Source of the DNA: a virus
Taxonomy: Duplodnaviria > Heunggongvirae > Uroviricota > Caudoviricetes
Reading direction: 5' to 3' (one strand)
DNA: 4,878 nt
IMG/VR virus record: IMGVR_UViG_2648501318_000008
Shown piece by piece: positions 1,055 through 4,878 of this stretch. The translations under genes and the position numbers were made by a program. The notes below the pieces were generated by a model. That model did no database searches, was not told the origin of the DNA, and saw nothing but the letters and a program-made list of their open reading frames with translations. Each line of letters begins with the position of its first letter. Position 1 is the first letter of the stretch.

Positions 1055-1411
1055 ATGGAAATAAAACCAGAAGATGAGTTAAGTAATATTGTTTTATTTC
1101 CGGTAAAAGAGGATGACCCACGTAATCAGGTTAATTTTCTTTATGAGCCATCGGAAAGACCATACTGCCATCACGCCTCTGTCCGGGTTGACGAAAAAGA
1201 TCGCCAGGTCCGCTGTAAAATCTGCGGTGCAGTTGTGGAGCCATTTGACTGGATGCTCTCTGTGGCGAAAAGAGAAACCAGGCTGGCAGATGATGTAAAG
1301 CTATTGCGCCAGGAGGAACAGGAAAGGCGGAAAAATATAGAAAAGTTAATTCAGATTGAGCGTAACGCGAAAGCGCGGATACGCAGGGCGACAAAATCCA
1401 TAACTGAATAA
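1055..1411 (+). CDS. Hypothetical protein with zinc-ribbon-like C-x-H-H...C-x-x-C motif and basic coiled-coil tail (118 aa from ATG 1055; track start 998 is a GTG further upstream)
   Basis: ATG at 1055 preceded by GGAGAGGAG; motif PYCHHASV...(14)...CKICGAV; C-terminal LLRQEEQERRKNIEKLIQIERNAKARIRR is heptad-like and basic. Stop TAA 1409-1411. Confidence 0.55.
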   Translation: MEIKPEDELSNIVLFPVKEDDPRNQVNFLYEPSERPYCHHASVRVDEKDRQVRCKICGAVVEPFDWMLSVAKRETRLADDVKLLRQEEQERRKNIEKLIQIERNAKARIRRATKSITE

Positions 1412-1447
1412 TTAAATTTAGCACTGTAAATAAAATCAAATCCTTAA

Positions 1448-1500
1448 CCGGAGGGATTTCTGCACCCTCAAATCATCCGGAGGCCGCCCGAAAGGGCGGT
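1448..1500 (+). promoter_or_regulatory. Structured intergenic element: direct repeat CCGGAGG (1448-1454, 1477-1483), each copy opening a stem-loop; the second is a GC stem with GAAA tetraloop
   Basis: Hairpin 1: GAGGG 1451-1455 pairs with CCCTC 1465-1469 (9-nt loop). Hairpin 2: CCGCCC 1484-1489, GAAA, GGGCGG 1494-1499. No U-tract follows on either strand, so it is not a classic intrinsic terminator. It resembles boxB-like or RNA-processing hairpins and sits between the replication module and the small-gene block. Confidence 0.3.
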
Positions 1501-1535
1501 AATAAAAATGGCTGAACTAATCGGAGAATAAAACG

Positions 1536-1718
1536 ATGAAAAACCGTAAAGCAAAGATTCTGTTAGTTCGTAGAAACGCTCCTGGCGTCTGGCAGTGGGT
1601 GAGACTCAGCAACCGACGGATGGGGTTAATGAAACATTACGGGATGATGGATTGTGGTTTTTGCAAAAAGCCTACCGCGGCACAGAACAGGCGGAAGAAA
1701 GGGTACGCAGTACGATGA
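1536..1718 (+). CDS. Small basic protein, 60 aa, paralog A of a tandem pair
   Basis: ATG 1536 with GGAG at 1523-1526. Shares MKNRKAK, QW.R.SNRR and AAQNR blocks with the next ORF. Stop TGA 1716-1718 overlaps the next start (ATGA). Confidence 0.45.
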   Translation: MKNRKAKILLVRRNAPGVWQWVRLSNRRMGLMKHYGMMDCGFCKKPTAAQNRRKKGYAVR

Positions 1719-1906
1719 AAAACCGTAAAGCAAAGATGCTTATTTCCCGTGTATACAGACGTTGCCATCCCAGCCAGTGGTTGAGAGTTAGCAATCGCCG
1801 TGTGGTGTTGTACTTATATTCTGGAATTGCCAGAGAGGGAGTCAAAGATAAGCGCAGCGCGGCGCAAAACCGCTGGAAAAACCACTTGCGTACTAAAGGA
1901 GAGTGA
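1715..1906 (+). CDS. Small basic protein, 63 aa, paralog B of the tandem pair
   Basis: ATG 1715 lies inside the track ORF 1595-1906 and overlaps the stop of paralog A. The 26 nt around the start (ACGATGAAAAACCGTAAAGCAAAGAT) are identical to those around the paralog A start. Differences in the conserved SNRR block are synonymous (aac/aat, cga/cgc, cgg/cgt), which argues for real coding sequence. Confidence 0.45.
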   Translation: MKNRKAKMLISRVYRRCHPSQWLRVSNRRVVLYLYSGIAREGVKDKRSAAQNRWKNHLRTKGE

Positions 1907-1907
1907 T

Positions 1908-2123
1908 ATGGCTATCGCTGCAAGTTACACCATGCATCTCTATTGTGATTGCCTCCAGTGTACAAATGGCAAATATAAGTCGCCAGATTTTGGTGAGTAT
2001 ATCGGTACGTCATGGGCTGGCTGTGCAAAAGAGGCACGTAAAGATGGGTGGCGAATAAGCGCCGACAAAACGCGTGCTTTTGCGCCAGGGCATAAAATTT
2101 TGAGGAGCAACAAAGGAGAGTGA
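1908..2123 (+). CDS. Small Cys-rich protein, 72 aa (CDC..C...C), possible zinc finger
   Basis: ATG 1908 follows AAAGGAGAG and a TGA-T-ATG junction with the upstream gene. Cysteines at 13, 15, 18 and 39. The track ORF 1800-2123 is an N-terminal extension without a ribosome-binding site. Confidence 0.45.
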   Translation: MAIAASYTMHLYCDCLQCTNGKYKSPDFGEYIGTSWAGCAKEARKDGWRISADKTRAFAPGHKILRSNKGE

Positions 2124-3493: not shown

Positions 3494-4390
3494 ATGAGCC
3501 TTAGGTCTGAGCGTACGAAATGGGTTATGTTTTTGCCTTGTTCTAAAGAAGAAGTTGAATCGCGCCACGTTTTGGATATTGTTTTTGGCGTGCTATGTCT
3601 TGAGAAGGCCGGTATAAATCCACGAGACATATCAATATATATTGACAGCCCTAACAGGAATTTTGATGATTTTTTTTCATCAGCCTCGAAGTATCCTTAT
3701 GCGTCAAAAGCATCAGCAGATTTCTTTAATGACTTGCGTGATAATAACTACAATAACATAGTAATGTTTGTTACTGGTCATGGTTGCCCACAAGGACTGG
3801 ATGCAAAAAATCCTATTACTCCTCATCAACTTCTCAAGGCTTTAAAAGGAGCACCTAATTTAAACAATGCTATTGTTTATTTTGGACAGTGTTATGCAGG
3901 TACGTTCAATTTTGTTGGGGCGGGTAAAAGAAAGGATGGCGAGCCTGAGGTTGTTTTAATTGGGGCGACTAATCTTACTGAGAGTCTGAGTATAGCGACT
4001 ACTGAAACGTTTCTTGATGGAGATGAATTTCCTTGGACGGCCAATATTTTTCTCCTTCATGTTTTTAAATGGATGTCAAAACCTTCTGATATAGATGGTG
4101 ATGGCCGTTATACTGTAATGGATTCTTATAAGCATGCTGGTATTTTTACTAACTTTGTGAATAAAAAAACAAAAACAGATATGTTTGGTGAGATAATTAA
4201 TATGCATGCAGAGTGTAATAAACTCATGGCACTGGCTTCTTCGGGGACAGGGAATTGGATAATTGATACGACAAATGAGTTAAATTATAAAGCCAAAAAA
4301 ACACAACTACAAAATTTATTGATTGCGCACCACACTCATCAAGAATGTTGGATATTAAATGCAAGACCAGCGCAAAAAATTGAGTTTTGA
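3494..4390 (+). CDS. Putative clan CD / family C13 (legumain-like, caspase-fold) cysteine peptidase, 298 aa, no signal peptide
   Basis: ATG 3494 with AAGGA at 3484-3488. Hydrophobic strand then His-Gly (NIVMFVTGHG, His96) and hydrophobic strand then Cys (AIVYFGQCYAG, Cys133), 37 residues apart. N-terminal KWVMFLPCS...RH...AGINPRDISIYID and later VVLIGATNLTESLSIA parallel, from memory, legumain KHWVVIVAGS...RH...NGIPDEQIVVMMYDD, FIYFTDHG, VFYIEACESG and NVYATTAANPRESSYA. Needs profile or structure confirmation. Confidence 0.6.
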   Translation: MSLRSERTKWVMFLPCSKEEVESRHVLDIVFGVLCLEKAGINPRDISIYIDSPNRNFDDFFSSASKYPYASKASADFFNDLRDNNYNNIVMFVTGHGCPQGLDAKNPITPHQLLKALKGAPNLNNAIVYFGQCYAGTFNFVGAGKRKDGEPEVVLIGATNLTESLSIATTETFLDGDEFPWTANIFLLHVFKWMSKPSDIDGDGRYTVMDSYKHAGIFTNFVNKKTKTDMFGEIINMHAECNKLMALASSGTGNWIIDTTNELNYKAKKTQLQNLLIAHHTHQECWILNARPAQKIEF

Positions 4391-4696
4391 CTAATCGTTA
4401 TGTCAATTAATTACAATAACGACTTATCATGGTGAGCAAAAACGGTTTGCGGGAAAAGGAGAGTTAAGTAGAATTGCTGCGGGTGCTTGAGGCTATCTGC
4501 CTCGGGCATGAACACCAAAAGGCAGATAGAGAAAAGCCCCAGTTAACATTACGCGTCCTGCAAGACGCTTAACATTAATCTGAGGCCCAATCTATGTCTC
4601 ACAAATGTAGGTTAGCCTCTTACGTGCCGAAAGGCAAGGAGAAGCAGGCTATTGTTAACACCAAGCTGTAATGTCCCCTTTGAACCATTCTAAAAT

Positions 4697-4726: not shown

Positions 4727-4878
4727 ATGATCAAAGAGACTGTTACGATGAGTCATAAGGAACTCCACCGACTTCAGATTATTCAGGAGTCAATTAATCG
4801 ACATATTACTCAGGAACAAGCTGCGGCACGCATTGGCATTTCTATTCGGCAGGTTAAACGTCTGGTGCAACGGTATAG
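4727..4878 (+). CDS. Transposase-like HTH protein, N-terminal fragment (IS element, possibly ISNCY or IS481-type); continues past the window end
   Basis: ATG 4727 (alternative in-frame ATG 4748). Translation MIKETVTMSHKELHRLQIIQESINRHITQEQAAARIGISIRQVKRLVQRY is a classic N-terminal helix-turn-helix of IS transposases (compare IS21 IstA ...IATQIGCSERTVRRYLK). Family is from memory and uncertain; IS boundaries are not determinable here. Confidence 0.45.
   Translation, partial: MIKETVTMSHKELHRLQIIQESINRHITQEQAAARIGISIRQVKRLVQRY

Follow-up and report, generated by a model that had tools for sequence, protein, structure and literature searches.

Overlapping PHROG 1380 genes of a lambdoid prophage: a pair of small basic paralogs from a family of combinatorial arrays

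The lysis-lysogeny decision of lambdoid phages, and through it the production of Shiga toxin, is biased by the small genes of the exo-xis and nin regions (PMC8614690). Among the early accessory genes of these phages, lambda Orf60a (DUF1317) and Orf63 (DUF1382) are adjacent and overlapping and encode 60 and 63 amino acids (aa), respectively (PMC8614690), and the pair of open reading frames (ORFs) analysed here, ORF A and ORF B, is like them in these respects. The pair lies on a 4,878-nucleotide (nt) stretch of Caudoviricetes DNA (IMG/VR record IMGVR_UViG_2648501318_000008), the whole of which is referred to as the window, and belongs to PHROG 1380, a known phage family without an assigned function which occupies the same exo-xis region in Shiga-toxin (Stx) phages as Orf60a/Orf63 in lambda. 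Unlike A and B, Orf60a and Orf63 do not form a paralogous pair, and their folds (PMC8614690, PMC10869804), an all-helical dimer in the case of Orf63 (PMC10869804), differ from the one predicted for A and B. Homology with the two lambda proteins was ruled out: the hhalign probability was 0.1 for both (933W orthologues) and no Pfam match was obtained at E ≤ 0.1. The agreement in length is a coincidence.

We lean, with moderate confidence, towards A and B being a coupled pair of early accessory proteins which bind nucleic acid, presumably in a modulating role, and which were brought together by recombination of diverged paralogs. The genes themselves are well-supported accessory genes of a catalogued, ordinary kind. 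Not only the family but also the two proteins were on record, since RefSeq holds identical sequences (A, WP_000797277.1; B, WP_001384637.1), both named 'hypothetical protein' by the Prokaryotic Genome Annotation Pipeline (PGAP), and the GenBank record of phiV10 already describes p51 as similar to p50, the two copies in that phage. New here are the formal evidence of coding and purifying selection, the combinatorial arrays, in which the tails are position-specific and the ends homogenised, and a fold prediction which is consistent, though unanchored.

The initial annotation of the window described A and B as adjacent, small and basic, with identical 5′ ends, a shared AAQNR block and a stop codon overlapping a start codon. 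All these features were located as follows.

1536–1718, + strand: ORF A, 60 aa, 7 kDa, isoelectric point (pI) 11.7, net charge +16; PHROG 1380 type A
1715–1906, + strand: ORF B, 63 aa, 7 kDa, pI 11.6, net charge +15; PHROG 1380 type B
1715–1718, + strand: ATGA overlap, the TGA stop of A (1716–1718) on the ATG of B (1715–1717)
1533–1558, + strand: identical 26-nt stretch, copy 1; ACG, codons 1–7 and the first two bases of codon 8 of A
1712–1737, + strand: identical 26-nt stretch, copy 2; spans the A/B junction
1608–1619, + strand: S-N-R-R codons of A (AGC AAC CGA CGG), at the predicted β1-β2 turn
1790–1801, + strand: S-N-R-R codons of B (AGC AAT CGC CGT), with three differences from A, all synonymous
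1677–1691 (A) and 1859–1873 (B), + strand: AAQNR block, present in both ORFs

The 26-mer ACGATGAAAAACCGTAAAGCAAAGAT occurs exactly twice in the window, was matched in 0/200 shuffles and can be lengthened to 29 nt at 97% identity (one mismatch). The proposed paralogy of the two proteins was borne out by BLASTP (49% identity over 55 residues, E=4e-12), and the substitutions within the S-N-R-R block, which had been called synonymous, are indeed all silent. The tail of A has the form ...QNRRKKGYAVR-stop, which we call inner, and that of B the last-copy form ...QNRWKNHLRTKGE-stop.

Both peptides match the profile hidden Markov model of PHROG 1380 end to end, A with residues 1–60 on profile positions 1–60 of 62 (E=3.5e-36) and B with residues 1–63 on positions 1–62 of 62 (E=2.5e-32); they are full members and differ from the family in nothing. 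Its motifs, the N-terminal M-K-N-R-K-A-K, the S-N-R-R turn and K-x-S-A-A-Q-N-R near the C-terminus, are present in A as well as in B. In the alignments of 38 and 43 members, N3, R4, S25/26, N26/27, N51/52 and R52/53 are invariant or more than 90% conserved, as is M1, outside the motifs. Scans of A and B against Pfam (none at E ≤ 0.1), NCBIfam and PADLOC gave no matches, a Pfam scan of all 43 members at E ≤ 10 produced no recurring family, and a sequence-profile search of the PDB returned nothing at E ≤ 10. Comparison of the predicted folds of A and B yielded no informative match, and nothing about the family was found in the literature on phiV10 p50, VT2-Sa p08 (another PHROG 1380 member), MKNRKAK or phrog_1380.

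The family is restricted to temperate phages and phage-plasmids whose hosts are Enterobacteriaceae. When 1.84 billion cluster representatives were searched exhaustively with the profile, 50 proteins only were retrieved, and the named sources were Escherichia, Salmonella, Enterobacter, Citrobacter and Phytobacter. Two multi-repeat matches of this search (P0137 and P0149) were discarded as spurious, being low-complexity or NHL-like repeats; one member of 196 aa (P0141) has a C-terminal extension which offered no domain clue. Essentially none were detected among the GTDB species representatives, where the one 228-nt contig is probably contamination. In E. coli the family is very common: a 601-nt query across the pair (window positions 1400–2000) found matches in 2120/5426 complete genomes. 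Members are present in Stx phages including 933W, in phiV10 and HK225 and in D6- and P1-like phage-plasmids, always in early regions, where they follow either replication genes (O/P or DnaB-type) or ea22, in the latter case within the exo-xis region. Some of them have escaped annotation. In 933W (L084, NC_000924 3766–3951, minus strand) the family ORF is intact and unannotated, p08 being drawn over it with a long N-terminal extension, and in E. coli EC2 (L002, 4014–4196) the first copy was left out by PGAP. Although the family is so widespread, Stx phages included, it has no name, structure or assigned function.

A and B are genuine protein-coding genes under purifying selection. From 220 fetched loci, 309 copies were collected which represent 97 distinct DNA versions, and a frame of 55–66 codons is kept in 93 of these 97, so that the tolerance of frameshifts among related phages which would have spoken against the ORFs was not observed. 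The ratio of nonsynonymous to synonymous substitution rates (dN/dS, ω) within types is 0.13–0.44. When all six frames were compared, only the annotated one was free of stops, and its dN/dS was the lowest with the exception of the mirror frame, which has stops. Invariant residues are encoded by several synonymous codons (S26 by AGC/AGT, N27 by AAC/AAT, R28 and R29 by five each, R54 by AGG/CGC/AGA), which, together with the within-type ratios, supports the protein-level selection originally argued from the S-N-R-R block.

AlphaFold, supplied with the 38- and 43-sequence alignments, predicted an α-β3-α arrangement for both proteins, with mean local confidence (pLDDT) of 76.5 for A and 74.2 for B. 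The predicted elements are a helix at residues 4–13, strands at 19–23, 28–33 and 38–43 and a helix at 48–58 in A, and a helix at 4–13, strands at 20–26, 29–34 and 39–44 and a helix at 49–61 in B. On these models the conserved patches NRKAK, SNRR and K-x-SAAQNR fall on the N-terminal helix, the β1-β2 turn and the start of the C-terminal helix, respectively, and the variable part, which defines at least seven sequence types, on the β2-β3 region. The median net charge of the family is +13. The charge and the conserved Arg/Asn/Gln patches suggest that the basic patches of each 7-kDa protein bind DNA or RNA, with type-specific differences conferred by the variable hairpin; we consider the chances of this to be about even. 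Each paralog would receive its own specificity or partner from the variable β2-β3 centre, and two or three copies in one phage would amount to as many specificities. Should the proteins indeed bind nucleic acid, or act against host defences, the regulation of lysis-lysogeny and Shiga toxin would gain a player missing so far.

The double-stranded RNA-binding domain (dsRBD) has the order α-β-β-β-α, about 65 residues and three regions of contact with RNA. In element order and size the models of A and B are like this domain (PF00035), albeit at a pLDDT of only 74–76, and the three conserved patches lie at positions which we take to be analogous to the three contact regions. A dsRBD identity, raised by the order of the elements, was rejected because the models have no three-dimensional similarity to solved dsRBDs and the sequences no match to the Pfam profile.

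The main rival to nucleic-acid binding is that A and B are, as the initial annotation had suggested, anti-defence or host-takeover effectors, and that they bind a host protein, the variable centre and the multi-type arrays reflecting an arms race with host targets. The setting is suitable for it, as such genes cluster in accessory early regions, and so are the conserved ends around a variable centre (ω 0.8–1.06), the combinatorial stacking of paralogs, and the narrow host range and fast evolution expressed in 50 representatives among 1.84 billion proteins. Nevertheless, the PADLOC, Pfam and NCBIfam scans, the fold comparison and the literature provided no such effector, ω is not clearly above 1 in any segment, and a net charge of +15 on 60 residues is more typical of proteins which bind nucleic acid. 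We regard host-protein binding as a possible but rather unlikely explanation.

The expression signals of the pair and the junctions at its borders are listed here.

1523–1526, + strand: Shine-Dalgarno sequence GGAG of ORF A, 9 nt before the ATG
1895–1914 and again 2112–2131, + strand: 20-nt junction linker AAAGGAGAGTGATATGGCTA / AAAGGAGAGTGATATGSCTA, comprising the last codons (...K-G-E-stop), a Shine-Dalgarno sequence and the start of the next gene
1908–2123, + strand: downstream gene, 71 aa, PHROG 926; a frequent, non-obligatory neighbour

ORF A has a ribosome-binding site of its own. ORF B is without a Shine-Dalgarno sequence at the normal spacing of 5–10 nt: the sequence upstream is ggcggaagaaagggtacgcagtacgATG, and the closest run of purines, AAGAAAGGG, stops 14 nt before the start. 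At the sequence level, a translationally coupled pair is characterized by a stop codon which overlaps a start codon and by a weak or absent Shine-Dalgarno sequence of the distal gene, and A and B show both features. The combination implies coupling by termination and reinitiation, and B is probably made, from the start inside the stop codon of A, by ribosomes which have just terminated on A.

The overlap is general in the arrays of the family. At least seven sequence types of PHROG 1380 can be distinguished (A, a, B, b, C, c and D). They were encountered in about 110 distinct contexts, of which about 60 contain one copy, 41 two and one three. C-A is the most frequent pair (27), followed by a-B (4), c-B (4), C-B (3), A-B (2) and c-D (1); the only triple, in L006, is C-A-B. 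Copies are joined by the same −4 ATGA overlap in 41/41 two-copy arrays and in the three-copy array; ATGA overlaps are also frequent throughout the operons which carry PHROG 1380 genes. The C-terminal tail is set by the position in the array, inner copies ending in the QNRRKKGYAVR form, which runs into the next ATG, and last copies in QNRWKNHLRTKGE. In type A both forms occur, RRKKGYAVR in inner copies and RWKNHLRTKGE in last copies. The last-copy tail also encodes the Shine-Dalgarno sequence AAAGGAGAG and a TGAT-ATG linker for the next gene. The linker at 1895–1914 closes most PHROG 1380 arrays in other phages as well, and it may serve as a recombination linker. The downstream neighbours of the arrays differ (PHROG 926, DUF4014 and others), and the family is therefore an independent module.

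On the upstream side, more than half of about 100 arrays tallied are preceded by an ORF of 58 aa with an Arg-rich tail (...RRRAKR-stop) and an ATGA overlap of its own, for example L002 3841–4017, L003 3702–3878 and phiV10 p49, with the tail ...AARRAAKRRRRAKR-stop. It was considered as a further PHROG 1380 homologue and ruled out (hhalign probability 0.1). The window bases 1522–1539 read CGG AGA ATA AAA CGA TGA, and homology with L002 begins at window position 1523. These bases look like a remnant of the Arg-rich tail and ATGA junction, the 58-aa ORF itself surviving only in its last 14 nt or so (1522–1535). The 124-nt gap before A contains a G+C-rich hairpin, GGCCGCCC-GAAA-GGGCGGT at 1481–1499, which lacks a T-run and was not called by the terminator scan.

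The divergence between A and B of the window is large, with a proportion of synonymous differences (pS) of 0.60, about 1.2 synonymous substitutions per site (dS) and 0.50 nonsynonymous substitutions per site (dN). They are saturated at synonymous sites and are old paralogs. The divergence is also uneven. In the comparison of types A and B, pS amounts to 0.31 for codons 1–9, 0.13 for codons 47–58 and 0.55–0.63 for those between them, and ω is 0–0.2 at codons 1–9 in every comparison, about 0.2 at the C-terminal end in most comparisons and 0.8–1.06 in codons 30–46. The 5′ stretch is conserved in all types, and the codon for R4 is CGT in 91/93 versions, whereas the other invariant arginines use 3–5 codons. 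Taken together, the uneven divergence, the conserved 5′ stretch and the codon bias at R4 indicate that the conserved gene ends have repeatedly undergone recombination or gene conversion, a process which would shuffle the types, alter the copy number and swap the tails. Phage recombinases have been shown to recombine diverged lambdoid sequences readily (PMC2327257, PMC3945230), which agrees with such a process. The arrays are also similar to lambdoid mosaic junctions, the 'linkers' of relaxed homologous recombination, in that short conserved gene ends flank variable bodies and the modules are combinatorial (PMC2327257, PMC3945230). In contrast to those linkers, the PHROG 1380 junctions lie within paralogous coding sequences, and for this reason recombination would alter the copy number and swap C-terminal tails besides exchanging alleles. 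The array architecture is a clean example of how conserved gene ends enable the shuffling of copy number and alleles in phage genomes.

A more far-reaching interpretation would make the family a system of cassettes shuffled by recombination. Crossovers would take place at built-in sites, the conserved gene ends (5′ and 3′) with 26–57 nt identical between neighbouring copies, and temperate enterobacterial phages could in this way stack one to three micro-proteins with different hypervariable β-hairpins. Each of these would be aimed at a different host nucleic acid or defence component, so that the whole would be an evolvability locus for counter-defence or host control in which position-specific tails preserve the coupling in any combination. 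We consider this extended form doubtful.

Of the earlier designation of A and B as tandem duplicates, the paralogy holds and the local duplication does not. Recent duplication within this prophage, with 26 nt kept identical by gene conversion, is very improbable, even though the adjacent copies do share an identical 5′ stretch and differ less at synonymous sites towards both ends than in the centre. This reading is already largely refuted. The overall dS is about 1.2. Moreover, types A and B occur alone or with other partners in many phages, the combinations A-B, a-B and C-A-B are found in unrelated phages (e.g. phiV10), and the 5′ stretch is conserved across all types. The dS and the independent occurrence of the types show the pair to be one combination in a recombining family; it would have arisen when already diverged members recombined at the conserved gene ends, and not through a recent duplication on the spot. 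Identity of the 5′ end is found across the family and is not peculiar to this pair. Adjacent copies in other phages share 8–23 nt from the ATG, and those of the three-copy array share 57 nt. The 26-nt identity is the upper end of this family-wide property and not a sign of recent duplication.

That the repeat is non-coding, i.e. an RNA element or a protein-binding or recombination site over which the ORFs are incidental, is highly improbable. The first seven codons do vary less synonymously than other invariant codons, as exemplified by R4, and a weak hairpin can be drawn over the A/B junction (−16.7 kcal/mol, z=−1.8). Such additional 5′ constraint is, however, expected where translation is initiated and where gene ends recombine. 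No covariance model of Rfam 15 matched within 1536–1906 (the sole real match in the window being sok), RNA folding around both starts and the junction was not significantly stable (z −0.9 to −1.8), and the promoter/terminator scan gave no signal above shuffled controls. The concern voiced with the initial annotation, that the repeat might be an RNA element rather than coding, is not supported by the Rfam and folding results, and frame conservation and dN/dS strongly favour coding.

The ATGA overlap and the gene sizes also resemble type II toxin-antitoxin operons, but we give a toxin-antitoxin-like nature of the pair hardly any credence. The reading fails because the two partners are paralogs of one family, both are strongly basic and the copy number is variable (about 60 of about 110 contexts are single and one is triple), so that the pair is not obligate; PADLOC and Pfam detected no toxin or antitoxin match either. 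Just as little weight is due to the idea that ORF B is unreal and that the PHROG 926 gene has a long N-terminal extension over the 3′ half of B: a GTG-started ORF is open at 1800–2123 in the window and the 933W annotation of p08 uses that frame, but the stretch open upstream in this frame is not conserved (13 to 51 codons in 42 distinct contexts), the frame of B is stop-free in 23 distinct versions with the lowest dN/dS of the six except for the mirror frame with stops, and the strong Shine-Dalgarno sequence AAAGGAGAG directly precedes the ATG at 1908.

The placement of A and B in a phage early region, suggested previously, was confirmed in complete genomes. Window positions 1400–2000 are 100% identical to four complete E. 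coli chromosomes. In E. coli CV839-06 the pair is within a lambdoid prophage integrated beside a tRNA-Ser gene. The prophage gene order starts with the repressor and Cro-like helix-turn-helix (HTH) genes, followed by YdaT, a replication gene, DUF977, a 118-aa protein and then A and B; after them come several small genes, hokD, DUF968, RusA and Q and then the lysis and terminase genes. A and B are thus in the early rightward operon after the replication genes, at the position of the nin region of lambda.

Several neighbours in the window gave observations in their own right. The 118-aa protein (1055–1411, PHROG 1621) has a weak zinc-ribbon match of the TFIIB type (E=1.7e-4, below the Pfam cutoff) and a weak match to an LmuB-like coiled coil in PADLOC (E=0.0025). 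Between the small early genes and hok/sok there is an ORF of 298 aa (3494–4390), the PGAP version of which in CV839-06 is shorter (828 nt). It contains the motifs TGHGCPQG (His-Gly) and YFGQCYAG (Gln-Cys), matched Peptidase_C13 faintly (E=0.088) and had no PADLOC match; it may be a caspase-like protease moron. The sok antitoxin RNA was found at 4481–4653 (Rfam, 114 bits, E=2e-26). The nearest E. coli genomes align with the window only to 4652 and have hokD there. From about 4653 onwards the DNA of the window is unrelated, and an HTH-like ORF (MIKETVTMSHKELHRLQIIQ...) opens at 4728; this part is probably an insertion sequence which cuts hokD.
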